Shown here one piece after another: positions 49,588 to 64,000 of a stretch of 64,000 nt of DNA. Source of the DNA: an uncultured delta proteobacterium (GTDB lineage Bacteria; Desulfobacterota; RBG-13-43-22); NCBI GenBank assembly GCA_963746605.1, contig CAVVCH010000007.1:1620-65619 (forward strand). Reading direction: 5' to 3'. The number at the start of each line of letters is the position of its first letter. The first letter of the stretch is position 1. The notes under the pieces are model-generated. The model did no database searches, was not told the DNA's origin, and was given only the letters and a program-made list of their open reading frames with translations. A program made the position numbers and the translations under genes.

Positions 49588-49601
49588 GGAAGAAGATCGA
49601 C

Positions 49602-49655
49602 AAGGCCGATACTGGAAACCGGAATGGCTAGCCAGTATCGGCCTTTCTTTTTTTC
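49602..49655. terminator. Intrinsic terminator between convergent genes
   Basis: aaggccgatactgg...ccagtatcggcctt followed by T-tract. Confidence 0.75.
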
Positions 49656-50372
49656 CTAATCCAATTTAATCGAATCCTTGGTCTTTTCCCGTCGGTTGGA
49701 CTCCTTCTTATTATAGCTCGCCATGCAGGAATCATTTTGCCCCTTGGTCAGCGAGCAAACCAGATAATCCGAGATTTCGATGATGCAGGCTCGTATGGCC
49801 TTGCCCGTGGGGGTTTTCTCGTATTTCCCCAGGTCGCCGGATAGAATCCCGATGTGTCCCCCCAGGCTGAACCCGCTGGACTCCGAGGTAGCTTCCACGG
49901 TCCGGCTGTCCGCGATTTCCCCGGTATCGGTGTCGATTATCTTCAGATCCACGGCCATATAGGCCCTTTCCTGTTTCCCGCCGACTCGAAAGCCCATGAT
50001 CCCGATCCCGCCGCCGGTGCCCTGGGTATTCTCCTCGAAAGCGGAGACGGTGGCGGCTACCAGATACTTGGCCCCCTTAATTTTTCCGATTTTAGCCTTG
50101 GTCCGCGGATCGATCCGCCCGGAGGCTCCCAGATCCTGCTCCCCGATGACGGCATTGATTTCTTTTCGTTCCAATACCTGAAAAGCCTTGGTGGAGGCCA
50201 GTTCATTGACCAGCATGTCCTGGAGATCATAGCCCATGTTCCCTCGCCACCAACCGGCGGAGGTCTGGTTGGTGAACCGCAGCACCCCGAGGCGGGGCTT
50301 TTCCTGAGCCTCGGCCAGACAAAAAGAAAAAACAATCGTGAAAACAAACAACAGCGCAATGACTTTTTTCAT
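49656..50372 (-). CDS. CsgG/HfaB family protein
   Basis: Signal peptide; FQVLERKE...EQDL, GKIKGAKYLV, VDLKIIDTDTGEI. Confidence 0.85.
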   Translation of the reverse strand: MKKVIALLFVFTIVFSFCLAEAQEKPRLGVLRFTNQTSAGWWRGNMGYDLQDMLVNELASTKAFQVLERKEINAVIGEQDLGASGRIDPRTKAKIGKIKGAKYLVAATVSAFEENTQGTGGGIGIMGFRVGGKQERAYMAVDLKIIDTDTGEIADSRTVEATSESSGFSLGGHIGILSGDLGKYEKTPTGKAIRACIIEISDYLVCSLTKGQNDSCMASYNKKESNRREKTKDSIKLD

Positions 50373-50567
50373 GGTACCTCCTGATTCAATGAAATGAACT
50401 CGTCCTTTTCTGAGCAGAAAAATAGCCCAATCCGATTAAAAAAACAACCCTTAACCCGCTTACCTTTTTTTTCATTCTCAAGGAGTTTCATTCTTATTAT
50501 CGGGCGAACATAAAAATATTTAAGAAAATAGTTTATAAATAGGGGCCGAGGGATTCTAAAGCTCCGA

Positions 50568-50627
50568 TCTCTGTCATCCGTCATCCGTCATCTGCCCTCT
50601 GTCATCCGTCATCTGCCCTCTGTCGTT
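50568..50627 (+). repeat. CTGTCAT/CCGTCAT heptamer tandem array (right-arm orientation)
   Basis: ctctgtcatccgtcatccgtcatctgccctctgtcatccgtcatctgccctctgtcgt. Confidence 0.85.
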
Positions 50628-51028
50628 CTATCCCGCCTCGAGCATCCAGAAATGACGTTTTAATTATTCATCAAACAGGAGTTCGGGAAGTAAAACCAAT
50701 GTCGGGAAATAGACTAAAAAAAACCGGCTTATCGGATAGTTGCCAGGTAGGATAAACCTAGAGTTGTTCTTGAATTTATAAAAATGGTAGAGTATAATAA
50801 ATATTTCTATAATTGGCTTGACGGGTTATGGCACATGGCAATTCATCTCATAGCTCATGGCGAAAATACAGGGTACAAGGGCTTTATCTGAAAACGCCTA
50901 CTTTTGATAAATAGTTTCCATCGTTCTCTTATACTATTTATCGAAGAAGGCATGGGAAAGAATGTGAAGAAGAGGACAATTTCAAGGAAGAAATTCTGAC
51001 ACCCCATTCCTAAAGTAAAGGACAACGC

Positions 51029-51721
51029 ATGAAGAAGATCTTTGTTCCCTTCTGGATACTGAGTATTTTTCTGCTGTTCACCTCTTGCACGGCGGCGGTC
51101 AAAACGTCAGGGGCGCTGAACGTCCAGCCTGACCCGGCCCGGGATTATCAGATCCAAGTGGGCGATGCCCTGGACATCAAGTTTTTCTACCACCCCGAAT
51201 TGAACGAGTCGGTAGTGGTCCGGCCGGACGGCCGGATTTCACTCCAGTTGGTACACGAGGTCCAGGCCTCGGGCCTGACCCCGGAAACGTTGCGGGAAAA
51301 CCTCCGGGGAAAATACGAGCCACAAATCAGTAAACCGGAGATCGCCGTCATCGTCCGGTCCTTCACCGCCCAGAAGGTATACGTCGACGGGGAGGTGGCC
51401 AAGCCCGGGCTGATCCCCCTGACCGGCCGGATGACGGTCCTCCAGTCCATCGCCTCGGCCGGGGGATTGAAAGACACGGCCCGGACCAACGAGATCATCC
51501 TCATCCGCCGTGGCCCGGAAAACCGGCCGGCCTCAATGCTGGTGAACGTGGAAAAGGCGATCGACGGCAGCGATCCCTCACAGGACCTCTCGCTGCAGCC
51601 GGCGGATATCGTCTATGTCCCCAAGTCCCCGATCGCCAACGTCAACGTGTGGATTGACCAGTACATCCGGAAGAACATCCCGATCCAGTTGGGGCTTTAT
51701 TATAATTTAGTGCCGTACTAG
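51029..51721 (+). CDS. Polysaccharide export outer-membrane lipoprotein (Wza-like)
   Basis: Lipobox FTSC; YQIQVGD, VRPDGRIS, VYVDGEVAKPG, LQPADIVYVP. Confidence 0.92.
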   Translation: MKKIFVPFWILSIFLLFTSCTAAVKTSGALNVQPDPARDYQIQVGDALDIKFFYHPELNESVVVRPDGRISLQLVHEVQASGLTPETLRENLRGKYEPQISKPEIAVIVRSFTAQKVYVDGEVAKPGLIPLTGRMTVLQSIASAGGLKDTARTNEIILIRRGPENRPASMLVNVEKAIDGSDPSQDLSLQPADIVYVPKSPIANVNVWIDQYIRKNIPIQLGLYYNLVPY

Positions 51722-51771
51722 AGCTTATCTCAATGTCAAGCCTTCGTAACTAAGAGCTGACACAGGCAAAA

Positions 51772-51833
51772 GAGCTTATAGCTCATATGGTGAGCTGTAT
51801 TTGTATTTGCTCTGAGCTACGAGCCCTGAGCTA
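51772..51833. repeat. AGCTCAT / ATGAGCT heptamer inverted arms without cargo
   Basis: agcttatagctcatatggtgagct...ctgagctacgagccctgagctaa. Confidence 0.65.
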
Positions 51834-51847
51834 AAAGAAGGAGATCC

Positions 51848-53317
51848 ATGGAAACAACGAATTACCCGAATATTCAGGACTCGTCGGGCGGTAGCCTGCG
51901 CGATTTCCTGGCTATCCTCTTCAAGCGGAAGGCCGCCATCCTGACCATCTTTCTGGCTACGGTCATTACCGTGGCCGTCGGCTCCTTCCTGATGTCCCCC
52001 ACCTACGAGGCCCGGTCCAGCCTGCTGGTCAAGTTCGGGCGGGAGTTCATCTACCGGTCCGAGGTAGGGGACAAGGCCCCCATGATCTCCTTCAACCAGG
52101 AAGAGGCCATCAACTCGGAGATCAACATCCTGACCAGCCGGGACATCATCGAGCGGGTGATCAAGACCATCAAGCTGGAGAATATCTACCCGGAGCTGGC
52201 GAAGAACCCGCCGGCCAGGATGACGCCGATGGAAGCGGCGGTTATCGTCTTCCAGAAGAAGCTGACGGCCGAGGGGATCAAGAAGTCCAGCGTCATCGAG
52301 GTCTCCTTCCAGCACAAGGATCCCCAAGTGGCCGCCCGGGCCGTCAACCTGCGTGGTGGACTTCTTCAAGGAGAAGCACCTGGCGGTCCACAGCGGGACG
52401 GAATCGACTTTCCTGGAAAGTCAGACCGACCTGTACGACCAAGGAGCTCAAGAACTCGGAGAATCGCCTGGAGGCCTTCAGGCAGAAGAACCGGGTCTTT
52501 TCCCTGGACGAGCAGCGGAGCCTGCTCTTGAAGCAGCGCACGGAGCTGGACACCTCGCTGAAGAGCACCCAGAACCGGATCGACGAACTGGCCAAGAAGC
52601 TCGCTTCCCTGAGGGGCCAGATGAAAGGCATCCTGGCCGACAAGAACAACTACACCCAGACCGAGCGGGACAAGATCATCGTCGAGGCCCGGGCCAAGCT
52701 GCTCACCCTGCAGTTGAGCGAGCAGGACCTCTCCTCCAAGTACACGGACAACAACCGGCTGCTGGTCAACGTGCGCCAGGAGATCCAGATCGTCAGGGAT
52801 TTTCTGAAGGAGCAGGAGGAGGCCATCGGCGGCAAGGTGAAAACCAGCAACCCGGTTTACCAGGATGCGGAAAAGGGGGCCATGAACGCCGAGGCCGAAG
52901 AGGCTTCCTTACGGGCTAAGGCCGCCACCCTGCAGGCGCAGATCGGCCAGTTGGATGGCGAGATTAAGACCCTGGACCTCCGGGAAAAGGACCTCCAGGG
53001 ACTGAAGCGGGAGGTCAGCTACCAATGACAAGAATTTCCGGACCTACCAGGACAAGAAGGAGGAGGCCCGGATCTCCGACGAGATGAACCGCCAGAAGCT
53101 GGCCAACATCAGCGTCATCCAGGCCGCCGTGGTCCCCTCCAAGCCCATCAAGCCCAAAAAAGCCCTGAATGTCCTGCTGGGCATCATCCTGGGGGCCGTC
53201 TCCGGCCTGGGGTTCGCCTTCCTCTCCGAGTATACCAGCCAGCGCTTCACCTCCCCGGACAGCGTGGAGCAGCGGCTCGGGCTGCCGGTGTTGGCGACGA
53301 TAACGCTAAAAGAGTGA
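51848..53317 (+). CDS. Polysaccharide chain-length determinant (GumC/Wzc N-terminal type); three +1 frameshifts (~52352, ~52443, ~53025)
   Basis: LRDFLAILFKRK, PTYEA, ILTSR, coiled coil, A..P..PIKP plus TM, LGLPVLATI. Confidence 0.88.
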
Positions 53318-53331
53318 CGTGGTTAAAACTC

Positions 53332-53409
53332 GGATGACAGATGGCAGATGACAGAAAAAAACAGATGACAGATGACGGATGGCAGACGACGGTAAAGACC
53401 CGATGACGG
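53332..53409 (+). repeat. ATGACAG/ATGACGG heptamer left arm; last unit supplies the start codon
   Basis: ggatgacagatggcagatgacaga...gatgacagatgacggatggcagacgacggtaaagacccgATGACGG. Confidence 0.9.
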
Positions 53410-53792
53410 AACAGATTAAAAGCTTTCGGGATTTGCGGGTCTATCAAGCAGCATTTGAGTTGCAGCAAGAGGTTTTTAGGGTTTCCAAGTCCTTTCCAAA
53501 GGAAGAAATGTTCTCTCTGACAGATCAGATCAGGCGTTCATCGAGGGCCATCGGAGCCAATTTGGCAGAGGCCTGGCAAAAAAGACGTTATGAAGCTCAT
53601 TTTGTCAGCAAACTGAGCGATTCAGACGCCGAACAGGCCGAAACCCAGCACTGGCTGGACACGGCCCTGAATTGTAAGTATATCAAGCCGGAAGTTCAGG
53701 CCGGCCTCCTTGAAAAATGTCAAGAGATCGGCCGAATGCTCGGCACCATGATCAACAAACCCTCATCTTTTTGTCGCCAATTCTCAAAATGA
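53403..53792 (+). CDS. Four helix bundle protein (23S rRNA-IVP/Avd-like fold), intact
   Basis: SFRDLRVYQAA, FPKEEMFSLTDQIRRSSRAIGANLAEAW, ETQHWLD. Confidence 0.93.
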   Translation: MTEQIKSFRDLRVYQAAFELQQEVFRVSKSFPKEEMFSLTDQIRRSSRAIGANLAEAWQKRRYEAHFVSKLSDSDAEQAETQHWLDTALNCKYIKPEVQAGLLEKCQEIGRMLGTMINKPSSFCRQFSK

Positions 53793-53796
53793 TATT

Positions 53797-53937
53797 CCGT
53801 TATCTGTTATCTGTCCTCCGTCCTCCGTCATCCGGTCTTTCTCCGTCATCCGTCCTCTGTCATCCGTCATCCAGTCTTTCTCCGTCATCCGTCCTCTGTC
53901 ATCCGTCATCCAGTCTTTCTCCGTCATCCGGTCTTTA
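53797..53937 (+). repeat. CTGTCAT/CCGTCAT heptamer right arm with 39-bp higher-order repeat
   Basis: Reverse complement of the left arm; unit gtctttctccgtcatccgtcctctgtcatccgtcatcca starts at 53835 and 53874, partial at 53913. Confidence 0.9.
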
Positions 53938-53958
53938 CTCTGAGCCATGAGCTAACCC

Positions 53959-55411
53959 ATGTATCTCAATTATTATAATCTCCGGGCCGAACCCTTTCGG
54001 ATCACCCCCGACCCGGAATTCCTCTACCTGAGCCCCAGCCACCGGGAGGCTCTGGCGACCATCACCTACGCGGTGGAGCAGGGTAAGGGGTTCATGGCCC
54101 TGGTGGGCGAGGTGGGTCTGGGGAAGACGACGCTGCTGCAGGCCTTCCTGCAGGCAGCGACAGGGAGCCAAAGAAAAGGTCATCTATCTCTTCAATAGCC
54201 GCTTTTCCTACGGCGGGCTGCTCCGGGCACTGGCGCGGGAGCTGGACCTGGAGGTGACCTCCGAGGAACCCGAAGATCTCCTGGATCATATTTACCAGGC
54301 CCTGATCCGGGAATACGCCCGGGGGAACAATATCGTCCTCCTGATCGACGAGGCCCAGGGTCTGCCGGAGGAAACCCTGGAGGGGCTTCGGTTGATCTCC
54401 AACCTGGAGACCTCGACCGAGAAGCTGCTCCAGATCGTGCTGGTGGGCCAGCCCGAACTGGCCGCCAAGCTCGACCGCTACGAGCTGCGCCAGCTCAAGC
54501 AGCGGATCGCCGTCCAGGCCGTCCTGTCCCCCCTGACCCGGGAGGAAAGCCGGGAATACCTCCGGTTCCGGCTGGAAAAAGCCGGCGGGCGGGCCGAGGA
54601 TATTTTCACCCCCCGGGCCCTGGAAAGGATCGTCCGCCGGGCTAAGGGGATTCCCCGGGCCCTCAACATCCTGGCCGACAACGCCCTGGTGACCGGGTTC
54701 GGGTACCAGCGGAAACCCATTCCCCTCAAGGTGGTCAACGAGGTGTCGGCCGACCTGGAGGGTCGTAACAAATCGTTTTTCCGCCGCTGGGTCCCGGCTT
54801 CCCAAGCCGCTCTGCTGGTCGGCTTGGGGGTATTGGGGGCGTCCATCTATTATCAGCAGTCAGACTCGGGGCCCAAGGTCTCCATTACCTTGCGGGAGAA
54901 GGATCGGGCGGGGAAGGCCGCCGCCGTGAAGATTCCGCTCCAGGAGGATCCTCTGCAGGTCACCGGGATCCAGCCGGTCAGGGAGGGGGAAGTCATGAAC
55001 CTCGCGGCCCCGAATGGTCTGGCCCAAGGGAAAACCGAGGCCTCCAGCGGGCGGGAAACCTCGACCCCGGGCAGCCGGGGAAAAGAACCGGCTGCCACCG
55101 AAAAAAAACCGACGCCGGAAAAAGAAAACCTGGGCATTCCTCCTAAACGAAAGGTGGAGGTCGCTCCGTCCCCGGAACAACAGCCGGCTGCCGCCGAAGA
55201 GCATCCAGCCCCCGGGTTCCCCTTCACCCGGAAGGTCCGGAAAGGAGAAAACCTCTACCGCATGATCCTGGAGGTCTACGGCGCCAGCAATCCGGAATTG
55301 TGGGATCTGGTCCGGAAGCACAATCCGCGGATCAACAAGGACCTGAAGATACTGGTGGGGCAAAAGATCATCTTCCCGGAATGGAAACCAATAGCCAAAA
55401 ACGGAGGTTAG
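53959..55411 (+). CDS. ExeA-like AAA ATPase with TM and C-terminal LysM-like domain; +1 frameshift ~54165
   Basis: PFRITPDPEFLY, GEVGLGKT, IDEAQ, LVGQPEL, GIPRALN; VRKGENL...NPRI...ILVGQKIIFP. Confidence 0.88.
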
Positions 55412-55473
55412 CTCATAGCTCATAGCAAAAAACAGGGGTCAAGGGTTCGAGGATTCAAGGGTTCAAGTGAACT

Positions 55474-55776
55474 GCGGAACAGGGTGCTTTTATTCTAAGA
55501 GAGGGACGCCGACATACAATTTTCGAAAGAGGGATAGGATCTGTAAACAAATAACCTTGACAAACGGCCCCACAACCGTTCGCCCTGAGCTTGTCGAAGG
55601 GTGAATGATACGGCAATGCTTCGACAGGCTCAGCATGAACGGAGATATTAGCGGTATTGTACAGCTTATTTCTTGACGGGTTCTTAAGGAGGACCGAAGT
55701 TCCTCGCCACAGAGAAATTGTCGATGAATTGGCCAGGAAAATTTGTAAAGATCTCGACATTCCTTTTGTGAGGTAA
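55474..55776 (+). pseudogene. HicA toxin, 5'-truncated and interrupted by a MITE
   Basis: AEQGAFILREGRRHTIFERGI [MITE] RRTEVPRHREIVDELARKICKDLDIPFVR*; removing the MITE and one TSD restores the frame. Confidence 0.8.
55537..55683 (-). mobile_element. MITE family B, copy 2
   Basis: Reverse complement of 45111-45258; flanks ATA/TTA. Confidence 0.85.
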
Positions 55777-55779
55777 TCA

Positions 55780-55952
55780 ATGAAATACAGAGCGGTTATA
55801 AAAGAAGTTGGTGTGGATTGGATGGTTAATTGATCTGCCGGGGGTAAATGCTCAGGAGAAGAACAGGGAAGAATTATTAAAATCCCTTCGTATCGGAGCC
55901 GAGGATATGCCTGGCCACGATCGAAATCAACGATCCCCAATGGGCCGTTTAG
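55780..55952 (+). pseudogene. HicB antitoxin remnant (paralog of 62497-62706)
   Basis: MKYRAVIK...WIGWLIDLPGVNAQE...SLRIGAED with small deletions. Confidence 0.78.
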
Positions 55953-56083
55953 GGGTATAAACTATCAGCACTCGGCCCCTTGAACCCTTCGAATTCACTA
56001 TGAACTATGAGCTCCGAGCGATGACCTCTCTTGTCTTCGCCGTGAGCTATAAGCTACGAACTATGAGCTAAGTCGGAGATTTT

Positions 56084-56941
56084 ATGGGTAAAATCTATCA
56101 GGCTCTCCAAAAAGCCCGAGACAACCGGAGCAAACTCCAGGTTGTCGTAGGAGTCCGGGAAACAGCCCCTGACCTATCCGGAAGCGGCGCCGGCCCCGAA
56201 GCGCGAAGACCCCCCGACCCTGTCGATGTTCAAGCCGATCCTAGCCCCGGCCCCCCGGAGGCGGTGCCGATCCCGGCAGCGGTCCCGCAGGAAACCTTCC
56301 TTCCCCTGACCCTGGAATTGGAGGCGGAGAAAGAGATGGCCACGCTGTACCAGAATATCGAGGCCCTGGTGGGCCAGCCCCGGAAAAAGATCATCCAGTT
56401 CATCGGTTCCCATCCGGGGGAGGGGACCTCCACCATAGCCCGCGACTTTGCCCGGTTCTCGGCCTCCCGGCTGGGGAAAAAGGTGCTTTTCCTGGAGGGG
56501 GACCCGGCCGACTCCTCGCAGCCTTTTTCCGGCGGAGGCCGAATGGTCAGCCTGGAAGAGACGGTCCGCCGGGGGGAGGAGGTCGAAGGGGCCTTTGCCC
56601 AGTCTGAGGGAACCGGCCTGGCCGTCGGCCTGGTGGCTCGGGAGGAGGGATCCCTGATCCACTTCCTGGAATCCGAAGACCGGGCCCCGGTTTGGGAGCG
56701 CCTGAAAGAGCATTTCGACCTGGTGGTGATCGATTCTCCTCCGTTGTCGGCCTCCACCGCCGGCCTGGCCTTCTGCCGCCGAGCCGACGGGGTAGTCCTG
56801 GTCCTGGAAGCCGAACGTACCCGGGGCCCGGTGGCCGAAAAGGCCAAGGAGCAGATCCAGAAGAACGGGGGGAATATCCTGGGGGTGGTCTTCAATAAAA
56901 GGAAGTTTTACATTCCGAAGAGTATTTATAAAAGACTTTAG
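56084..56941 (+). CDS. CpsD/CapB family tyrosine-protein kinase
   Basis: MGKIYQAL; Walker A variant PGEGTST; VVIDSPP; ADGVVLV; LGVVFNKR. Confidence 0.88.
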   Translation: MGKIYQALQKARDNRSKLQVVVGVRETAPDLSGSGAGPEARRPPDPVDVQADPSPGPPEAVPIPAAVPQETFLPLTLELEAEKEMATLYQNIEALVGQPRKKIIQFIGSHPGEGTSTIARDFARFSASRLGKKVLFLEGDPADSSQPFSGGGRMVSLEETVRRGEEVEGAFAQSEGTGLAVGLVAREEGSLIHFLESEDRAPVWERLKEHFDLVVIDSPPLSASTAGLAFCRRADGVVLVLEAERTRGPVAEKAKEQIQKNGGNILGVVFNKRKFYIPKSIYKRL

Positions 56942-57015
56942 ATGACGGATGACAGATGACGAGACGGATGACGGAACGAAAGACCAGATGGCAGAAGACA
57001 GATGACGGATGACGG
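56941..57015 (+). repeat. ATGACAG/ATGACGG heptamer left arm
   Basis: gatgacggatgacagatgacgagacggatgacggaacgaaagaccagatggcagaagacagatgacggATGACGG; begins at the kinase stop codon. Confidence 0.9.
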
Positions 57016-57297
57016 AACAGATCAAAAGCTATAGGGATTTGAGGGTCTATCAGGCAGCCTTTGAGCTGCAGCAGGAAATTTTTGAGGTTTCCAAGGCCTT
57101 CCCCATTTTCTTCAGAAATCGGGATTTTTCGATTTCTGAAGGCCGAGACGCAGCACTGGTTGGATACGGCGTTGGATTGCAAATACATCAAACCGGAGAT
57201 TCACGCCGGCCTCCTCGAAAAATGCCAAGAGATCGGCCGCATGCTCGGCACCATGATTAACAAGCCTTCCTCCTTCTGTCGCCAATTCTCAAAATGA
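57009..57297 (+). pseudogene. Four helix bundle gene with central deletion
   Basis: MTEQIKSYRDLRVYQAAF...SKAFP, then palindrome ttcagaaatcg..cgatttctgaa, then AETQHWLD...FCRQFSK; lacks the KEE...QIRRS...AEAW block. Confidence 0.85.
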
Positions 57298-57307
57298 CCC
57301 GTTCTTT

Positions 57308-57547
57308 TCTGTCATCTGTCATCCGTCATCTGTCATCCGGTCTTTGGCCGCATGCTCGGTACCATGATCAACAAACCCTCATCTTTTTGCCGTAACTTCT
57401 CTAAATAATGAATCTTTTTCCGTCATCTGTCCTCCGTCCTCCGTCCTCTGGTCTTTTTCCGTCGTCCGTCATCTGTCCTCTGTCTTCTCCGTCCTCCGTC
57501 TCCGTCATCTGTCCTCCGTCTCCGTCTCCGTCATCTGTCATGAGCTA
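57308..57547 (+). repeat. CTGTCAT/CCGTCCT right-arm arrays enclosing an extra four-helix C-terminal fragment (57346-57408)
   Basis: Tandem heptamers; embedded GRMLGTMINKPSSFCRNFSK*. Confidence 0.85.
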
Positions 57548-57551
57548 ACCC

Positions 57552-58988
57552 ATGGTCCCCCTGCGCCGTAAAATCCTCCTCGATGCCCTCAAACTTTTCG
57601 ACCTTGCGGCCCTGGTCGGCTATTTCCTCTTCGCCGCTTGGGTCAGCTCGCGGGAAATGAAGGGCGTTTCCTTCGAGCAGGTGCTGGCCATGCGGATCAA
57701 GGTTTCGAACCTGTTGACCTTCTTGGGCTTCCTGCTGGTCTGGCACCTGATCTTTTCATTTTTCAAGCTCTACCATTCCCGGCGCCTCACCTCTATCCCC
57801 GAAGATATGCGTCAAATCATCAAGGCCGTCACCTTGGGGACTTTGGTACTCTTTGTGGCGGCGCTGGTTTTCAACATCCGGCTGGTCAATGGCCTCTTCC
57901 TGGTTGTTTTTTTTAGCGCCTGTACCGCTGGGACGATGGCCTCCCGCCTGGTGCTGAAAAAGGTCCTGGAGAAGATCAGGACGAAGGGCCGGAACCTGCG
58001 GAACATCCTCATAGTGGGCACCAACGGTCGGGCCCTGCGTATGGTGGACAGGATCTTGAGGAAACCGGAATTCGGCTACCAGGTCATGGGTTTCGTGGAC
58101 GAGGGCCGGGGCATGGCCGGTTTCGAGAAATCGGGCCACCGCCTGGTGGCTGACTTCAATAGCCTGCCGGCCCTGCTTCGCACCGAAGTGATCGACGAAG
58201 TGGCGATCTGCCTGCCCATCAAGTCCTATTACCAGCAGATTTCCCAGATCGTGTCCAACTGCGAGAAGCAGGGCATCATGGTCCGCTTCCTGTCGGACAT
58301 CTTCAACCTGAAACTGGGCCGGGTCAAGCCGGAGGAGTTCGACGAAGGGGCCTTTATCACCGTTTCCACCGGACGGATGGAAGGGTTCCCTTTGCTGGTC
58401 AAGTATGGGATGGATTTCATCGTTTCGCTGGTTTTGCTGGTTTTTTTATGCATCCCCTTTCTGGCCGTGGCCCTGCTGATTAAGATTACATCCAAGGGAC
58501 CCGTCTTTTTTATCCAGGACCGGGTGGGGCTCCACAAGCGGGTCTTCCGGCTGTATAAATTCCGGACCATGGTGGCCGACGCGGAGGCGAAAATCGCGGC
58601 CCTGGAGGGGCTGAACGAGGTGGACGGCCCGGCCTTCAAGATCAAAAACGATCCCCGGATCACCGGCATCGGCAAATTCTTGCGGAAAACCAGCATCGAC
58701 GAACTGCCCCAGTTGATCAACGTGTTGAAGGGGGAGATGAGCCTGGTCGGCCCGCGGCCCCTGCCCATCCGGGACTACAACGGGTTCGACCGGGACTGGC
58801 ACCGCCGGCGCTTCAGCGTCAAACCGGGCATGACCTGCCTCTGGCAGGTGAACGGCCGCGGCAATGTCTCTTTTTCCGAATGGATGAAAATGGACATGCA
58901 ATATATTGATCAATGGTCGTTCTGGTTGGATCTGAAAATTCTCGTATTGACAATCCCGGCAGCTTTAAGAGGTTCAGGCGCCTCCTAA
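57552..58988 (+). CDS. Polyprenyl glycosylphosphotransferase (priming sugar transferase, WcaJ-like)
   Basis: TM domain; ILIVG; YKFRTM, DPRIT..GKFLRKTSIDELPQL, SLVGPRP, KPGMTCLWQV. Confidence 0.95.
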   Translation: MVPLRRKILLDALKLFDLAALVGYFLFAAWVSSREMKGVSFEQVLAMRIKVSNLLTFLGFLLVWHLIFSFFKLYHSRRLTSIPEDMRQIIKAVTLGTLVLFVAALVFNIRLVNGLFLVVFFSACTAGTMASRLVLKKVLEKIRTKGRNLRNILIVGTNGRALRMVDRILRKPEFGYQVMGFVDEGRGMAGFEKSGHRLVADFNSLPALLRTEVIDEVAICLPIKSYYQQISQIVSNCEKQGIMVRFLSDIFNLKLGRVKPEEFDEGAFITVSTGRMEGFPLLVKYGMDFIVSLVLLVFLCIPFLAVALLIKITSKGPVFFIQDRVGLHKRVFRLYKFRTMVADAEAKIAALEGLNEVDGPAFKIKNDPRITGIGKFLRKTSIDELPQLINVLKGEMSLVGPRPLPIRDYNGFDRDWHRRRFSVKPGMTCLWQVNGRGNVSFSEWMKMDMQYIDQWSFWLDLKILVLTIPAALRGSGAS

Positions 58989-59103
58989 CTGGAGTTATTT
59001 GCCACGAGCCACGAGCTGTGAGCTCTTGAAAAAGGTATAGAGATCGATCGGGAGACTTTTCCGCATCGAAAGGGCGGTAGCCTGCCCTGAAAGGTTGAAC
59101 ATT

Positions 59104-59222
59104 GATGACGGATGACAGATGACAGATGACGGAACATATTAAACTTTCGAGATTTGCGGGTCTATCAAGCAGCTTTTGAGCCGCAGAGGAAATTGGACGA
59201 ATGCTCGGCAGTATGATCAAGG
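59104..59222 (+). pseudogene. Heptamer left arm plus minimal four-helix-bundle remnant (N-terminus fused to C-terminus)
   Basis: gatgacggatgacagatgacagATGACGGaacatattaaa...gatttgcgggtctatcaagcagcttttgag | gaaattggacgaatgctcggcagtatgatcaa. Confidence 0.8.
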
Positions 59223-59324
59223 GAGTGGCCAGCTTGGATGCCGCTTCCTTCAACAGTCTCGATCAAAAAAATGACTTGTAAGATGAATAAATGACTTGTA
59301 AAATAAAATTTATAGAGGTTTGTT

Positions 59325-59561
59325 ATGGAAACGGCGGTAACAAAGCGCGGGCAGACTGTCATCCCAGCCGCTATCCGGAAACGTTATCGGATAGACAACG
59401 GTGCTCATTTGGTTTGGCTAGATGACGGGGAGACGATAAAAGTTGTTCCGGTCACCGCCGACCCGCTACAAAACCTTCGGGGGCGAGGGCGGGGAAAGAA
59501 ATTGACCGAAAAATTATTAAATGAACGCCGTAGAGATCGCGATTATGAAAAACGGCCCTGA
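59325..59561 (+). CDS. AbrB/MazE/SpoVT family antitoxin
   Basis: VTKRGQTVIPAAIRKRY; GAGG RBS. Confidence 0.9.
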   Translation: METAVTKRGQTVIPAAIRKRYRIDNGAHLVWLDDGETIKVVPVTADPLQNLRGRGRGKKLTEKLLNERRRDRDYEKRP

Positions 59562-59759
59562 AAGCGGGAAACGGCCTTTATCAGGTTGAAAGCTTTCCAC
59601 CGTATTTCGCTGGCTGATGCTGTCATCGCGGCCTATGCCATTCGCCATGACGCCATCCTTATGCACAAGGACCCGGAATTTGAGGCCCTATCCGGTTCAC
59701 TGACCCTGGGATCGCTCCCCTATAAATCAGCAGTTGGAAATCGGAAGATCCCAGGCTGA
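59545..59759 (+). pseudogene. VapC PIN toxin lacking its N-terminal catalytic half
   Basis: Only RLKAFHRISLADAVIAAYA...LMHKDPEF...LPYK remains, out of frame with the ATG. Confidence 0.78.
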
Positions 59760-59773
59760 TTTCTTGGGGTACT

Positions 59774-60028
59774 ATGGTAAAAAAGAAAAAACCTGAATTC
59801 GGGGACTATAAGGAGGCTTCGGTCTGGTTCGATACAAGTGACCTGGCGGATTATCAGGATCAGATGGTTTCGGTAGATTTTTCGTTCGATCTGAGAAAAA
59901 TGCCTGACTTGGTGGCCTTGGACCGGGAAATTGCCAAGGATGTTAGACAGTTGTCCATAAGAGAACATATTCCTACCCGGACACTGGTTAATCGGTTGCT
60001 GAAAAAAGGCCTAGAAGGTCTCCATTAG
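59774..60028 (+). CDS. CopG/BrnA-like antitoxin, orphan
   Basis: PEFGDYKEASVWFDTSDLADY plus C-terminal RHH; no upstream toxin ORF. Confidence 0.7.
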   Translation: MVKKKKPEFGDYKEASVWFDTSDLADYQDQMVSVDFSFDLRKMPDLVALDREIAKDVRQLSIREHIPTRTLVNRLLKKGLEGLH

Positions 60029-60053
60029 TCTTATTATTGGCCGTGTCGACTTT

Positions 60054-60135
60054 CCTCCGTCATCTGTCATCCGTCGTCCGTCATCCAGTCTTTACCCGTC
60101 CTCCGTCATCTGTCGTCTGTCATCCGGTTTTTCCC
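60054..60135 (+). repeat. CTGTCAT/CCGTCAT right-arm array
   Basis: cctccgtcatctgtcatccgtcgtccgtcatccagtcttt...ctgtcatccggttttt. Confidence 0.85.
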
Positions 60136-60330
60136 GTCTGCCAGACCAGAAAGCCCAAAGCTTTACTGAATGGAGTGAGCAACGTCCCGCTTTACGCGGA
60201 GGTGTCGAAACTGCCTCCCTGCATGACCCTGGAAAAGGAGCAGCCCAAAGACCGCCGTAAAATCCAGGCAGGAGAGGTTAACCGATCGATAAACTTCCAT
60301 TTTAGCAAATGATATCCTGGGAGGACAGCC

Positions 60331-60570
60331 ATGCAGGATCTGTTAAACCGTATTACCTTTGACAAGGAGGTTCTTTGTGGGAAGCCTCTTATTCGAGGAC
60401 TACGGATATCTGTCGAAATGCTGTTAGAGTTACTGGCCAAAGGGGCTACACAGGAGGAGATCCTACAAGACTACCCCCAACTTGAACCAGATGACCTTCG
60501 GGCGGTTTTGCTTTATGCGCATCATCTAGTGGCCAGAGAAGATATTTTTGATCGTGTCGCAGTTGGGTAA
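60331..60570 (+). CDS. DUF433 antitoxin-like protein
   Basis: RITFDKEVLCGKPLIRGLRISV...EILQDYPQLEPDDLRA. Confidence 0.92.
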   Translation: MQDLLNRITFDKEVLCGKPLIRGLRISVEMLLELLAKGATQEEILQDYPQLEPDDLRAVLLYAHHLVAREDIFDRVAVG

Positions 60571-60575
60571 ACGCT

Positions 60576-60842
60576 ATGGATTTCTTGCTGGATGTCAATG
60601 CCAGTGGGGCCGTGGCCCAATGGTTAATTCACCGGGGTCATGACGTAGCCGAGGTCGGCCGGAAAGACCCCAAAATGAGTGACAGTGAGATTTTGAACTG
60701 GGCCGTAAGGGAACACCGGGTTATTATTACAACAGACAACGATTTTGAGGAAATGATCTGGCGACAGGGGAAGCCGCATTGTGGGGTTTTACGTCTGGAA
60801 AACTTGCCACGCTCTGAGGGTCTATCAAGCCGCCTAAAATGA
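60576..60842 (+). pseudogene. DUF5615 PIN-like toxin, probably 3'-truncated by a four-helix-bundle fragment
   Basis: FLLDVN, GHDV, SDSEIL, ITTDNDF, GVLRL; ends in tgagggtctatcaagccgcct, which matches ~57040-57060. Confidence 0.7.
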
Positions 60843-60932
60843 GCCTTTTGCCCAACGAGGACCTTCTATTGACCGCAGTGGCCCTCAAAGCCGACTATTT
60901 TCTTCAGAAATCGGCCCTTTGATTTCTGAAGC

Positions 60933-61010
60933 ATCCGTGCCAAGTTGATGCCTTCGTCCCAGACCAAATAGACCAGTAAGTTATGCAACTTAGAACCAAC
61001 GTCCCGCATT
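60933..61010 (+). repeat. Dispersed ~78-bp repeat, copy 1 (copy 2 at ~62182-62261)
   Basis: atccgtgccaa..gatgccttcgt.ccag.ccaaatagaccagtaagttatgcaactt.gaaccaacgtcccgcatta. Confidence 0.85.
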
Positions 61011-61075
61011 AGCGCATTACTTGGTTTTTCACTAATCAACAATCCGATCAAACAAATGGGCAAAAGGAGATTTTT

Positions 61076-61303
61076 ATGATTAAAACAAAAGGATTGGCTT
61101 TGCAGGAGGCTTTGGATGCGGCTGATCATCTGCCCTTTGAGGATCAGGAAACATTGATCGAATTATTGCAGCGACGTTTTGTAGAAAAAAGAAGAGTGGA
61201 AATAGCTCGACATGCTAGAGAGACCATCAGGGCGGTAAGAGAAGGCAGGGCCAAGTATGGGAATATTGACGACCTTAAAAAAGACCTGCTGGGAAAACCG
61301 TGA
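61076..61303 (+). CDS. Probable antitoxin
   Basis: AGGAG RBS; LPFEDQETLIELL; C-terminal GNIDDLKKDL; GTGA overlap with toxin. Confidence 0.75.
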   Translation: MIKTKGLALQEALDAADHLPFEDQETLIELLQRRFVEKRRVEIARHARETIRAVREGRAKYGNIDDLKKDLLGKP

Positions 61304-61584
61304 GGCAGCTATCCTGGTCAACCAGTTTCCGTAGGGCCTTTAAGAAAAGGGTCGAGGGTAAGGCCACCTTAGAAGATAGAGTTTTTGAGGTTTTGGGGAG
61401 GTTAGCCGAGGACCCATATCACCCACTTCTGAAATCTCATAAACTAAGCGGCGCCTTGAAAGGGCTGTGGACGTGCTGGGTGGAATATGACTGCCGGATC
61501 ATTTTTACTTTTGAAAAGGACCCTAAAGGGAGTGGCGAGTTAATCATATTGGTAGATATCGGCAAACATGACGAGGTCTATTAA
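61300..61584 (+). CDS. RelE/StbE/YafQ family mRNA interferase toxin, apparently intact
   Basis: WSTSFRRAFK, LKSHKLSG.LKGLW, YDCRIIF, DIGKHDEVY. Confidence 0.9.
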   Translation: MRQLSWSTSFRRAFKKRVEGKATLEDRVFEVLGRLAEDPYHPLLKSHKLSGALKGLWTCWVEYDCRIIFTFEKDPKGSGELIILVDIGKHDEVY

Positions 61585-61664
61585 CCAGGTTGTCATGGAG
61601 AAGTGTCAATGAGCTATGAGCTGTTTTGTCACATGTCAAGACCTGGCACCACAATACGCAGCGC

Positions 61665-61806
61665 CAAATTAGCCCAATTAAGGGAGCATGTGGAAGAGAG
61701 GCTGATCACGCATCTGCGAAAGCGGCACAAGGTCAGAGATAGAAAGATGGGATACCTCAGGTTCAAACGGAGGGCGTTGTACGAGAAGTACGGTCTCTAC
61801 AAAGTG
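61665..61806 (+). pseudogene. Group II intron RT/maturase C-terminal fragment
   Basis: LREHVEERLITHLRKRHKVRDRKMGYLRF...LYEKYGLYKV resembles the end of maturase domain X. Confidence 0.6.
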
Positions 61807-61949
61807 CATGTCAATAGATCAGGCCTCGGAATTTTGGGATAGCCATGATTTTACTGAATTCCCAGATATTCAGGAAGTAAAAGGGGTTCGTTTCAAATGG
61901 TCAAAAGAGAAAGTCGGGGTCTAACCCCTGAGGCTCTGTGGTTTTGAAC

Positions 61950-62095
61950 CTCCGCTTTCCGTCCTCCGGTCTTTTTCTGTCTTCAGCCCTCCGTCATCTG
62001 TCGTCTGTCATCCGTCATCAGGTCTTTTTCCGTCGTCTGTCGTCCGCCCTCTGTCATCTGGTCTTTATCCGTCATCTGTCGTCTGTCATCTGACC
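61950..62095 (+). repeat. CTGTCAT/CCGTCAT right-arm array punctuated by GGTCTTT
   Basis: ccgtcatctgtcgtctgtcatccgtcatcaggtctttttccgtcgtctgtcgtccgccctctgtcatctggtcttt. Confidence 0.88.
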
Positions 62096-62340
62096 TCGCG
62101 CCCCCGGCGGGCAGCCGGTCTCAAGAAATCGAGTGCCCGATTTCTGGAGATTGAAAGGCAGTAACCGTGTCCATCCGTAAAATCCGTGCCAAAAAAGATG
62201 CCTTCGTTCCAGTCCAAATAGACCAGTAAGTTATGCAACTTTGAACCAACGTCCCGCATTATATAAGATCTATGAGCTGTATTCCTCGAACCCTTGGACC
62301 CTGTTTCTTTGCCATGAGCTAAGCAAACCAGATAACTTCA

Positions 62341-62491
62341 TTGAAAAGAAATCAGCTTATAAAACATCTTAATTTAAACGGGCAACCCTTTTAAGAGAAG
62401 GACGTCGCCATAGCATCTTTAAAAAAGGCTTGGCTAAAACGGAAGTTCCAAGGCATTCTGTAAAGACTTGGACATCCCTTTTGTGAGGTAA
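62341..62491 (+). pseudogene. HicA toxin with internal deletion and frameshift
   Basis: MKRNQLIKHL...LLREGRRHSIFKKGLAKTEVPRH joined to CKDLDIPFVR*; lacks REIVDELARKI seen in the 55474 paralog. Confidence 0.78.
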
Positions 62492-62496
62492 TCATT

Positions 62497-62706
62497 ATGA
62501 AATATCGGGCCATTATAAGAAAATCCGGCGATTGGTGGATCGGGTGGCTGATTGATTTGCCGGGGGTCAATGCGCAGGAAAAAACAAAGAAAAAACTGTT
62601 TGAATCCTTAAGGATCGGCGCTGAAGATATTCTGGCCACCGACATATCTTTCGATCCCAAGACCGAAATGGCTACGATCGATGTTCCCGATCCTGCCTGG
62701 GCCTGA
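62497..62706 (+). CDS. hicB: HicB family antitoxin (short form)
   Basis: MKYRAIIRKSGDWWIGWLIDLPGVNAQEKT. Confidence 0.88.
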   Translation: MKYRAIIRKSGDWWIGWLIDLPGVNAQEKTKKKLFESLRIGAEDILATDISFDPKTEMATIDVPDPAWA

Positions 62707-62747
62707 TTTTTCATCCTCCTTCAGAATGGCTCCGTCCGTGCCGGGCA

Positions 62748-62799
62748 GCCGGTCTTTTTCTGTCCTCTGTCGTCTGTCATCTGTCATCCGGTCTTTTCC
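62748..62799 (+). repeat. CTGTCAT right-arm array
   Basis: ccggtctttttctgtcctctgtcgtctgtcatctgtcatccggtctttt. Confidence 0.85.
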
Positions 62800-62928
62800 C
62801 GTTTTGCTAATTGGGGAAACAAAGCAAGGAATAAAAGGTTTTATGATCAAATGATTCCCTTAGCTGATCAAATTTTCGATGATTTCCTGGAATGTCAGGA
62901 GGAAATTTCCGGTGAAAAGAGTTATTAA
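62800..62928 (+). pseudogene. RelE/Gp49-like toxin C-terminal remnant
   Basis: VLLIG..NKARNKRFYDQMIPLADQIFDDFLE; begins right at the heptamer array; overlaps the HTH start. Confidence 0.65.
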
Positions 62929-63241
62929 GGAATACAAGGATTTTTTTATTGAAGCCAATAAAACCATGACGCCTGAAAGCGTTGTCCGGGCCGAGGAAAA
63001 GGCCAATCAGATTATGCTGAATCTTAAACTGGGCGAACTACGAAAGGAATTAGGCATTAAACAGGGGGACATCAAGGGGTTCAGCCAATCCGGTGTTTCA
63101 AAAATCGAAGGCAGAGAAGACTTAAAGATCTCCACGCTTATTTCATATTGTAAAGCTCTTGGGGTGGAGGTTGAAATAAAGACTTTTTTAAAAAAAGCGC
63201 TACCGAAGTCAAGGTCAAAGGTCCTCCTTCGCGCGGGTTGA
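62912..63241 (+). CDS. XRE/HigA family HTH antitoxin
   Basis: AGGAGG RBS with GTG start; LGELRKELGIKQ...SQSGVSKIE..EDLKISTLISYCKALG. Confidence 0.85.
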   Translation: MKRVIKEYKDFFIEANKTMTPESVVRAEEKANQIMLNLKLGELRKELGIKQGDIKGFSQSGVSKIEGREDLKISTLISYCKALGVEVEIKTFLKKALPKSRSKVLLRAG

Positions 63242-63269
63242 AGACTATCTTTTGGAAATTCCAGCTCTT

Positions 63270-63400
63270 AGGCTCTGTAGTTCCGTCCTCCGTCGTCTGT
63301 CATCTGTCATCCGGTCCCTGTGGCTCTGATCTCTGAGGCTCTGAAGTTCTGTCATCCGTCATCTGTCCTCTGTCATCCGTCTTTCGTCGTCTGTCATCCG
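63270..63400 (+). repeat. CTGTCAT right-arm array with interleaved GGCTCTGA octamers
   Basis: ccgtcctccgtcgtctgtcatctgtcatccgg..ggctctgatctctgaggctctgaagttctgtcatccgtcatctgtcctctgtcatccg. Confidence 0.85.
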
Positions 63401-63448
63401 CAGTTTGGAGGATTACAAGTAGTGTATATTTTAGGCATTTCCGCATAC

Positions 63449-64000
63449 TAGTATCATGTAACGTTAATATTTCGTATATTTAAAAAATATGCTATAATGG
63501 CGACAACTCACTGAGGGAGGTCGCCATGTCACCAAGATATCGAGTAACCTTGACCAAAGAGGAGCGCCAAGATCTGGAGACCCTGACCCATCGTGGAAAA
63601 ACCCACGCCAGAAAGTTTATCCATGCCCGTGCATTACTTTTATGTGATGCGGGGCCGGATGGACCAGCCTGGAATGTTTCCGACGTGGCCGCAGCGCTGG
63701 GGGTTACCAGTCGGGCGATTGAACACCTGAAGAAACGATTTGTTGAGGAAGGGCTGGAAGCGGCCCTGGAGCGTAAGCCTCGGGAAATGCCTCCACGAGA
63801 AGTCACCTTTGACGGAGCCTTTGAAGCCCGATTGATCGCTTTGGCCTGTTCCGAAGCCCCGGAAGGTCGTCGGCGGTGGACAGTCAGGCTCTTGGCCGAT
63901 AAGGCTGTCGAACTGGACTTTGCCCCTTCGGTATCGCATATGACGGTACAGCGGGTTTTAAAAAAAACGAACTTAAACCTCACCGCAGCCGATACTGGAA
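63449..64000 (+). mobile_element. IS630-family element, left end and orfA (ATG 63526), running off the window
   Basis: MSPRYRVTLTKEER...RALLLCD...KRFVEEGLEAALERK...LIALACS.APEGRRRWTVRLLAD; TA at left end; A8C slippery site 63960-63968 whose -1 frame reads NELKPHRSRYW. Confidence 0.9.

Follow-up and report, generated by a model that had tools for sequence, protein, structure and literature searches.

The window analysed here is a 64,000-nt stretch (C7:1620-65619, contig CAVVCH010000007.1) of the 4.56-Mb, 62-contig assembly of an uncultured delta proteobacterium, designated G000; G001, G002 and G003 denote its congeners, and G007 a genome of another genus. It holds an exopolysaccharide (EPS) operon with genes for an export protein, a chain-length determinant, a system ATPase, a tyrosine kinase and an EPS polyprenyl glycosylphosphotransferase, and, further downstream, a run of toxin-antitoxin (TA) modules. 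Between these protein-coding genes lie three copies of an element composed of a left (5' side, '+') array of tandem (GATGACR)n heptamers, an open reading frame (ORF) of the PF05635 four-helix-bundle family (IVP), and a right (3' side, '-') array of complementary (YGTCATC)n heptamers (Table 1). We consider it very probable that the three loci are one intact and two decayed copies of a ~0.6-kb hairpin element of the intervening-sequence (IVS) type, whose transcription, pairing, RNase III cleavage and spread we infer.

Table 1. Arrays, genes and operon slots in the window (window positions), and further IVP genes of G000 (contig:position). TRF, Tandem Repeats Finder.
Feature	Position	Strand	Basis or remark
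Solo right-type array (YGTCATC)n, 7 units	50568..50624	-	upstream of EPS operon
Slot B, between export and chain-length genes	51722..51847	.	short hairpin of another heptamer family
Left arm copy 1, (GATGACR)n with AAAGACC punctuation, start codon in last unit	53329..53408	+	TRF, reading, fold
Intact four-helix-bundle gene, 129 aa	53403..53792	+	PF05635 E 9e-32; TIGR02436 102.2 bits
Right arm copy 1, (YGTCATC)n, 39-nt super-period, GGTCTTT punctuations, pairs with left arm	53797..53937	+	TRF, reading, fold
Slot D, nested hairpin of other units, no IVP gene	55409..56075	+	TRF, reading
Left arm copy 2	56941..57016	+	TRF, clusters
Decayed IVP gene, copy 2	57009..57297	+	two frames, palindrome in middle
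Right arm copy 2, two blocks 57308-57345 and 57413-57535	57308..57535	+	TRF, reading
Left arm copy 3, 4 units	59104..59131	+	TRF, clusters
IVP remnant, copy 3	59126..59260	+	sequence comparison
TA-type cargo: MazE-like ORF, truncated PIN, CopG-like ORF	59325..60028	+	profile matches
Right-type array, nearest complement of left arm 59104	60052..60138	+	TRF, clusters
Two TA-type pairs: DUF433/DUF5615; unnamed ORF + YafQ-type toxin	60331..61584	+	profile matches
Right-type array	61950..62092	+	TRF, clusters
Right-type array	62748..62790	+	TRF, clusters
Two right-type arrays 63284-63311 and 63350-63398, CTGAGGCT-type octamers between	63270..63400	+	TRF, clusters
IVP gene, arm GAACATC	C45:70999		family AACATCG, 51 TRF rows
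IVP gene, arm TAATTAT	C12:26354		family AATAATT, 45 TRF rows
IVP gene, arm GAAATCC	C45:168649		families AAATCCG (41 TRF rows) / AAATTCG (35 TRF rows)
IVP gene, arm GAAGATG	C61:79070		family AAGATGG, 20 TRF rows
IVP gene, arm CAACCAG	C54:59149		family AACCAGC, 6 TRF rows

TRF finds a tandem period-7 array at every place where the initial annotation, made from the sequence alone, had named one. A 20-mer of three (GATGACR) units has 37 matches in the window at up to two mismatches, as compared to 0 in 100 dinucleotide-preserving shuffles, and all of them are confined to 50573-63377. Assembly-wide, there are 14 (GATGACR) clusters of at least 4 units, 12 of which lie within 50572-63398 of the window (three '+' and nine '-' arrays); of the remaining two, C20:8873-9027 comprises 20 units followed ~110 nt later by a short complementary arm, and the C1 cluster is a different repeat when read. 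The C20 hairpin is the one ORF-less copy with this unit seen in the genome, and its surroundings form a synteny break in comparison. Arrays of the GATGACR heptamer are present in 6 of the 41 genomes searched (G000 and 5 of 40 relatives), all from the window's own taxonomic family. As first noticed, the ATG codons at 53403, 57009 and 59126 are held in the last unit of each left array, and a complementary array follows each locus (53797, 57308 and 60052). The punctuation motif AAAGACC occurs in the left arms at 53375 and 56981 and GGTCTTT in many right arms; the expectation that the two would pair across the cargo agrees with the RNA fold described below. Metagenome contigs from four DNA runs are short and of low depth, and none crosses a whole element; where they join one array to another the sides are short (22-46 nt), and such joints probably reflect cross-matching of repeats. 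Two length variants, seen in one contig each, are weak hints of array length polymorphism: an extra heptamer after 56940 (X1) and 39 nt skipped at 53834-53874 (X2).

The protein encoded at 53403 scores 109.9 bits against PF05635 (cut-off 33.8; residues 9-114 on profile positions 1-105) and 102.2 bits against TIGR02436 (cut-off 24). Of the three four-helix-bundle loci initially reported, each has its left arm and a related ORF, but only 53403 is intact: the copy at 57009 is decayed and that at 59126 is a remnant, and both fall under the PF05635 cut-off (27.9 bits or no match). Relative to copy 1, the N-terminal 32 aa of copy 2 are 88% and its C-terminal 52 aa 92% identical, with the reading split over two frames and the middle replaced by a palindrome, cttcagaaatcg..cgatttctgaag (12-bp stem, ~57110-57141); between the two blocks of its right arm, the 3' end of the gene occurs a second time (period of 111 nt, 77% matches). 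Of copy 3, ~20 initial codons (70% identity) and 17 codons from the C-terminal part remain. The palindrome has 7 core matches in the genome, and its type recurs beside TA modules, both in the window (~60902-60930 and ~62120-62150) and at G000:C20:10003, C60:68594 and C61:240378.

The 53403 protein matches the solved structures 2rld_A (E 4.4e-9) and 2gsc_A (E 2.1e-5), each from a PDB entry with 5 chains, and the Xanthomonas structure of the family is described as a pentamer (PMC4990558). We regard the protein as a sequence relative of these four-helix-bundle proteins, with a putative pentameric state carried over from that description and the chain counts. Its dN/dS (ratio of nonsynonymous to synonymous substitution rates) is 0.078 against the G002 copy in slot C, the chain-length/ATPase gap (dS 0.34), and 0.040 against the G002 copy in slot E, the kinase/sugar transferase gap (dS 0.84), values that indicate maintenance of the intact protein by strong purifying selection. 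The genes could also be read as Avd accessories of a diversity-generating retroelement (DGR), with the repeats as template or variable-region debris. Similarity to bAvd is weak (PF22296, E 1.5e-10 and 41.9 bits, barely above the cut-off of 40), and Avd identity was rejected on the NF033474 equivalog score of 43.6 bits against a cut-off of 80. Moreover, the 4 reverse-transcriptase (PF00078) matches of the genome lie on C13, C60 and C61, none on C7, and the repeats are inverted 7-mer arrays with no template/variable-region pair; we give the DGR reading next to no credence.

Folded as RNA, positions 53320-53960 reach -231.7 kcal/mol, as compared to -181.4 +/- 6.4 kcal/mol for 20 shuffles (z -7.9), and the predicted stem between left and right arms, of ~80 bp, takes in AAAGACC/GGUCUUU and the start-codon region; the long stem anticipated for this copy is thereby recovered. 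In the model that we favor: (i) the element would be transcribed as part of the EPS operon; (ii) its arms would pair into an ~80-bp stem that hides the IVP start codon; (iii) RNase III would cut the stem, releasing the IVP gene RNA and separating the flanking cistrons; and (iv) the element would spread by a route perhaps involving the IVP protein. By analogy with rRNA members of the family, RNase III processing of the operon transcript would be the most likely mode of action.

The kinship with 23S rRNA intervening sequences, mentioned in the initial annotation as a property of the protein family, can be traced in the heptamers themselves. Plasmid AZO_p2 of Azospirillum lipoferum 4B has a 23S rRNA gene (RF02541 of Rfam, model positions 868-1715, 563 bits) within which lies a decayed IVP ORF containing stop codons. 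The ORF is flanked by cagaggacggatgacagaggacggaggacag and ccgtcctctgtcttctgtcatccgtc, in which GAGGACG/GATGACA units and their complement belong to the window's heptamer family. In Coxiella, the IVS has three tandem GACAGAT units and a GACAGAA ahead of the ATG of its ORF, in a copy number that varies between strains, and a 28-bp terminal stem that RNase III cuts mid-stem (PMC4990558). As GACAGAT is GATGACA in another frame, the window units represent the classical IVS element with its ORF, set in a host transcript of a different kind. The description of a candidate new system with no characterised mechanism was therefore overstated: this is a known kind of element, an IVS with an S23p/IVP ORF, in a new, intergenic setting, while its general architecture and its ORF-less derivatives appear to be newly described. 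The 23S gene of G000 itself (C52:168239-171401) measures 3,163 nt against a model of 2,925 positions, with small insertions in the part of the alignment examined, and the genome profile search gave no PF05635 match in it. An Rfam search of 48000-64000 at permissive thresholds returned three chance-level matches and no rRNA.

We analyzed how far this architecture extends across the PF05635 family using 110 loci, 30 from the 40 relatives of G000 and 80 from a scan of one genome per species; the latter come from Bacteroidota, Acidobacteriota, Planctomycetota, Chloroflexota, Cyanobacteria, Clostridia, candidate phyla radiation (CPR) groups, Methanophagales and other archaea. Twenty-two of the loci served to build a hidden Markov model (HMM), which located 106 genes of near-full length. 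An array of 7- or 8-mers lies within 200 nt upstream of 71 of the 106 genes, downstream of 65 and on both sides of 53, and arrays number 146 in the 41,662 nt of 200-nt flanks (3.50 per kb) versus 76 in the 254,596 nt of the rest of the loci (0.30 per kb), a 12-fold enrichment that bears out the association of arms with these genes in other genomes. The arms are complementary (reverse complement up to rotation, at most one mismatch) in 38 of 52 comparable pairs, as compared to 3.4% of 2,356 permuted pairs, and the unit varies by locus, e.g., AGGCGTG/CTCACGC, AGGATTCA/CTTGAATC, CGGGAGT/TCCCGAC and AGTGGTT/ACTAACC. Of the 52 pairs, 42 have the purine-rich arm upstream, 5 have it downstream and 5 are ties, which is the strand asymmetry for which the initial annotation had proposed a test. 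The ORF nearly fills the loop (medians of 366 and 408 nt), with a median of 23 nt between the upstream array and the start codon and of 7 nt between the stop codon and the downstream array; the arms vary little in length (median 32 nt, 4.5 units, interquartile range 29-41 nt). A hairpin of tandem 7/8-mers with the gene as cargo thus appears, as judged by these sequences, to be the rule for the family across bacteria and archaea.

Arrays are present at all 6 loci taken from finished plasmids of cultured strains, which shows that the pattern is no artefact of metagenome bins, and complementary arrays directly flank the gene in 5 of them. These are two plasmid loci of Nostoc punctiforme PCC 73102 (arms TCAGGAG/CTGACTC and AGCAGGGG/CCCCCTGC), the plasmid loci of Nostoc sp. 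MS1 and Azospirillum lipoferum 4B, and Anabaena sp. 90 plasmid pANA02 (L187), where cas6 and cas4 stand on either side of the IVP gene, whose arms are long (GGTGACA/GGGAACA)n and CTGTCAC arrays; the Anabaena locus could be the reason that the family has been noted in the vicinity of cas genes. In Oscillatoria nigro-viridis PCC 7112, the upstream arm is GAGTGGGA, the directly downstream array is in direct orientation (AGAGGGGG), and the complementary array TCTCCCAC lies a further ~300 nt downstream. The family is very large (7,963 of 8,000 scored candidates at E <= 1e-10 in one family search), and homologues at E <= 1e-5 occur in 29 of the 41 genomes formed by G000 and its 40 relatives. For most close homologues (70-93% identity) the contig measures 0.5-2 kb, and an array is cut by the end of contig C4 of G002 (L061 position 1); arrays seem to break short-read assemblies.

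The same organization is seen genome-wide in G000, where TRF reports 508 rows of period 7, 169 of period 6 and 187 of period 8, and where arrays of period 7 or 8 merge into 423. Neighbouring arrays with the same unit within 4 kb are inverted in 66 cases and direct in 15, most inverted pairs are 10-200 nt apart, and 54 of the 66 begin with the purine-rich arm. Ordinary simple-sequence repeats, arising by heptamer slippage beside genes by chance, would agree with this general excess of period 7 and with similar excesses reported in other bacteria (PMC4692102, PMC2700814); the flank enrichment, the complementarity of the units, the inverted arrangement of same-unit neighbours and the narrow arm length, however, speak against slippage, and we judge it highly improbable.

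G000 has 10 PF05635 matches, and the genes outside the window lie in arms of other units that form abundant families (Table 1). Family AACATCG has 20 inverted pairs, 19 of them ORF-less hairpins and 1 gene-bearing; the arms, including an irregular unit, are common to them, and several ORF-less hairpins share a ~30-nt subterminal segment with the gene-bearing copy. Family AAATCCG/AAATTCG behaves in the same way (14 inverted pairs, 1 with a gene). Most family hairpins outside the window are solitary. Many of the ORF-less AACATCG hairpins lie between an A-run and a T-run (e.g., C1:18346-18655 and C16:40406-40540), like two-way intrinsic terminators. One hairpin, G000:C6:21460-21551, lies between a stop codon and the next start; the orthologous site is filled in G001 (two loci) and empty in G002 and G003, where stop codon and ATG are 2 nt apart. 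At this one polymorphic site, GTTAATAG occurs on both sides in G000 and not in the G001 copies, and no clear target-site duplication was seen. No empty site was found for the C61 hairpin, which is filled or replaced in all three congeners.

Several observations bear on whether the arms act in RNA or in DNA. The arms are symmetric at the DNA level, yet among the 106 loci, scored by crude open frames, both neighbours are co-directional with the IVP gene in 74 and opposite in 4 (18 mixed, 10 undetermined), a bias that points to the transcript. The start codon is part of the stem or adjacent to it, and rRNA members are RNA-processed. The initial suggestion of an mRNA intervening sequence is supported, in a comparative way, by the stem of copy 1, the co-variation of the arms over 52 loci, the co-orientation, the 23S copy in Azospirillum and the RNase III stem of Coxiella, while for the EPS operon itself processing would follow only by analogy.

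A number of results weigh against this interpretation. First, the RNA-pairing test fails: in ungapped arm alignments of 50 pairs, 1,289 of 1,497 positions are Watson-Crick, and mismatches of the sense-transcript G-U type number 42 versus 70 of the A-C type (binomial p 0.010) and 96 others; consensus units give 7 G-U versus 21 A-C. Second, duplex energies are no better for sense than for antisense (Wilcoxon p 0.42), and the arm duplex energy is below the first percentile of permuted pairs in only 22 of 100 loci; arm pairing was judged by unit-level complementarity in place of this weak test. Third, the 106 genes are not independent, as paralogues and congeners are among them and the HMM came from 22 of the same loci, and neighbour orientation rests on crude open frames. 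Fourth, the Coxiella ORF is described as decaying and its protein as probably not made in vivo (PMC4990558). Fifth, nine right-type arrays against three left arms leave an excess in the window that simple hairpin units do not explain; our best guess is that the surplus right arms are leftovers of nested or rearranged elements. Finally, pairing and cleavage in the EPS operon transcript are themselves inferred.

Several of these points would suit a mobile hairpin acting at the DNA level, in which the arms serve as single-stranded DNA or a cruciform for copying or transposition, IVP is the element's own factor and RNA processing is a side effect. Arm mismatches show no sense-strand G-U tolerance, the C6 site is polymorphic for filled and empty states, and each G000 IVP gene is flanked by a heptamer family that is dispersed as ORF-less hairpins. 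A gene flanked by its own dispersed repeat family is the known pattern of REP-associated tyrosine transposases (RAYTs) and REPINs, the hairpins formed by repetitive extragenic palindromic (REP) sequences. Furthermore, the unit evolves much faster than the protein: among pairs with protein identity of >=70%, 54% have units no more than 1 apart, as compared to 7% of those at 55-70% and ~3% of those below. This divergence speaks against a fixed recognition code, and co-evolution stays compatible with it; that the arms nonetheless stay matched fits either arms renewed by copying or genes landing in existing hairpins, and spread at the DNA level is therefore kept as a live rival or complement. On the other hand, the protein is a 129-aa helical bundle with no nuclease or recombinase family in Pfam or NCBIfam scans, a DNA-only mechanism would not predict co-orientation of 74 versus 4, and the polymorphic site shows no clear target-site duplication. 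On balance, we consider a purely DNA-level hairpin rather unlikely.

The EPS operon provides a view of how such elements persist. In the intact G002 versions, the best NCBIfam matches of the EPS genes are to XrtA/PEP-CTERM-type families, all under equivalog cut-offs. Slot C is filled by the element in G000, G001 and G002, i.e., within one genus, and in G007 from another. The content of slot E differs among relatives. G002 has an intact 129-aa gene and G000 a decayed copy; in G001 the slot is taken up by a 5.2-kb insert bearing PIN genes and four right-type arrays, and in G007 by a PF05635 gene of 31% identity (E 1.9e-34) between octamer arms AAGGGGTC/CCCTTGAA. The proposed comparison of EPS loci for empty and filled sites has thus revealed differing cargo in slot E and a slot C occupied in all four genomes. 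In G001, the 3' end of the sugar-transferase gene is duplicated in slot E, which suggests recombination between arrays. A remnant like copy 3 lies downstream of the sugar transferase also in G019 and G007, and the slot at 50568 holds a 47-unit array in G002 instead of 7 units. Some 7/8-mer hairpin occupies every intergenic EPS slot in G000, G001, G002 and G007; the slots are old residences with turnover.

This occupancy, conserved over two genera, is also what would be expected of operon punctuation useful to the host, in which hairpins set EPS cistron ratios by serving as RNase III sites, terminators or 3' stabilisers and the IVP gene is a passenger in some of them. Enterobacterial REP elements are a precedent for such roles, and the A-run and T-run flanks of many ORF-less hairpins are terminator-like. 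Punctuation overlaps with the IVS-type element, the main difference being who benefits. However, the orthologous C6 junction works without a hairpin in G002 and G003, slot content turns over between intact, decayed and other-lineage genes, and the strong purifying selection on the protein would be needless for a mere passenger. We therefore regard host benefit as a possible reading, to be held with low confidence.

Two further slots show that other hairpin families share the operon with the IVS-type element. The slot B hairpin has units AGCTTAT/AGCTCAT ... TGAGCTA and ends in TGAGCTAA, 13 nt ahead of the start codon. This octamer stands 3-13 nt before four EPS start codons (51827-51834, 53948-53955, 56064-56071 and 57541-57548), twice in the form TGAGCTAACCCATG and without a Shine-Dalgarno sequence, and has only 30 copies in the genome, 6 of them in the EPS stretch; its placement recalls Beggiatoa TAACTGA repeats described as ending just ahead of start codons (PMC4679880). 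Slot D combines TAGCTCA units (55409-55426), the octamer AGGGTTCA (55434-55467) and CCTTGAAC-type plus TGAGCTA-type units (55975-56075). It encloses a short repeat at 55578-55645 together with a decayed paralogue (55744-55918 versus 62459-62639, 73% over 182 nt) of the 69-aa ORF at 62497, an ORF for which Pfam gave no match. Enclosure of this paralogue by the octamer arms AGGGTTCA/CCTTGAAC shows that such hairpins can carry non-IVP cargo. The core of the ~68-nt repeat at 55578-55645 (gccctgagcttgtcgaaggg ... cttcgacaggctcagc) has 28 copies in the genome, and its summed contig depth of 160-680 in four wetland and soil runs, with many different flanks, marks it as a very widespread short repeat.

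The statement that the inserts leave the EPS genes unbroken is accurate in that all inserts are intergenic, but the chain-length gene (51848-53317) reads as four ORF pieces (three breaks) and the ATPase gene (53959-55411) as two. Their G002 counterparts are single ORFs of 488 and 484 aa, similar breaks occur in G001, and metagenome contigs contain indel variants near 53015-53019; the breaks could be assembly error or real decay.

Downstream of copy 3, TA modules and solo right arms have accumulated. The TA-type modules lie in one orientation with right-type arrays between them and a helix-turn-helix ORF among them, and G001 has other cargo in a similar array setting; the initial account of right arms separating TA modules holds for the arrays in 59.3-63.4 kb, but not for that at 50568, which is upstream of the EPS operon. 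The YafQ-type TA pair at 61044-61414 is 94.6% identical to its G001 counterpart (L062:18934-19304), as compared to 83-90% for the flanking EPS genes, a hint that the module was exchanged recently. Two of the right-type arrays are followed by copies of an 80-nt repeat (60933-61011 and 62182-62261) that are 91% identical.

The arrangement had suggested an integron-like cassette array with the arms as recombination sites for successive TA cassettes, and the one-orientation modules, the different cargo between right-type arrays in G001, including PIN genes, and the apparently array-mediated rearrangement in its slot E could be taken in its favor. Nevertheless, TIGR02249 has 0 matches above 265 bits genome-wide (the best, 136.5 bits, is on C53, and none is on C7), the arms are tandem heptamers as in solitary IVS-type hairpins and rRNA IVSs and are on reading not attC-like, and most family members elsewhere are single units; a cassette array is very unlikely and this part of the initial proposal is abandoned. 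The DGR, simple-repeat and integron readings are each disfavoured by the evidence counted against them. The accompanying remark that no recombinase or transposase for the inserts is visible in the window is correct as regards integron integrases, none of which exceeds the cut-off genome-wide, but not as regards transposases: the N-terminal part of an IS630-family transposase (57.6 bits, cut-off 100) occupies 63526-63999, where it runs off the window end.

The IVS-type element connects three subjects: the PF05635 genes, a very large family with solved structures and no known function; tandem heptamer repeats, so far unexplained curiosities; and rRNA intervening sequences, for which the rRNA gene would be one landing place among many. 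The vague annotation 'four helix bundle protein' becomes testable element biology, arrays are seen to separate cistrons in capsule/EPS and CRISPR-cas operons, and, on the practical side, the very short contigs of homologues are consistent with arrays breaking metagenome assemblies. We tentatively suggest, as a conjecture that may well prove wrong, that tandem-heptamer hairpins and PF05635 genes belong together as a single, so far unrecognized class of selfish hairpin elements, widespread in bacteria and archaea. The form with the gene at the hairpin apex would be autonomous, and the repeats resembling cyanobacterial short tandemly repeated repetitive (STRR) sequences, the Xanthomonas GGGAATC and Geobacter sites and the ORF-less rRNA IVSs would be non-autonomous; the pentamer might bind about five units (cf. 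the median of 4.5 units in 32 nt) to protect, copy or spread the hairpin, each gene serving its own hairpin family as a RAYT does its REPINs. A general link between heptamer hairpins and PF05635 was not found in searches of open-licence PMC/bioRxiv main texts; the supplementary gene lists of PMC2700814 and PMC4692102 may bear on it.

Among known systems, rRNA IVSs (Coxiella, Leptospira) are closest. They share one protein family in the loop, complementary ends in a long stem, strain-variable heptamer copy number and the existence of ORF-less versions, and tandem heptamers before the start codon: GATGACR here, GAGGACG/GATGACA in Azospirillum and, as described in PMC4990558, GACAGAT in Coxiella. 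The IVS and its ORF have been described in Coxiella (PMC4990558) and in CPR rRNA genes. In contrast, the host transcript here is an mRNA operon, with the element between protein genes and not in a 23S helix; the protein is under purifying selection, whereas the Coxiella ORF is reported to be decaying and probably untranslated (PMC4990558); and RNase III cleavage is demonstrated in Coxiella but would apply to the EPS operon by analogy.

Cyanobacterial STRR sequences are tandem heptamer repeats. Further bacterial heptamer repeats comprise GGGAATC in Xanthomonas and GGGGAYT in Nostoc (PMC4692102), heptanucleotide families in Geobacter (PMC2700814) and TAACTGA in Beggiatoa (PMC4679880). Like the arrays studied here, they are intergenic, have ~4-6 units and often form convergent pairs, with 70-75 such pairs described in Xanthomonas (PMC4692102) and Geobacter sites mostly paired (PMC2700814), and some Beggiatoa repeats end right at start codons (PMC4679880); unlike them, the Xanthomonas/Nostoc, Geobacter and Beggiatoa repeats are not tied to PF05635 genes in the passages of PMC4692102, PMC2700814 and PMC4679880 located by term search. 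REP/REPIN-RAYT systems are similar in having a gene between inverted short repeats of a family dispersed as intergenic hairpins, with several families and genes coexisting, but there the flanked gene is a Y1 transposase and not a PF05635 helical bundle, the arm is one imperfect palindrome in place of tandem 7/8-mers, and mobility of the IVS hairpin is putative. MITEs (miniature inverted-repeat transposable elements) likewise include short ORF-less derivatives with terminal inverted repeats, but here no target-site duplication is established. Avd belongs to a related four-helix-bundle fold family, from which the IVP protein differs by a score below the equivalog cut-off and by the lack of a reverse transcriptase on contig C7. 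Integron arrays, finally, resemble the TA stretch in their small one-orientation cargo separated by repeats, and differ in that no integrase exceeds the cut-off here and the separators read as heptamers.

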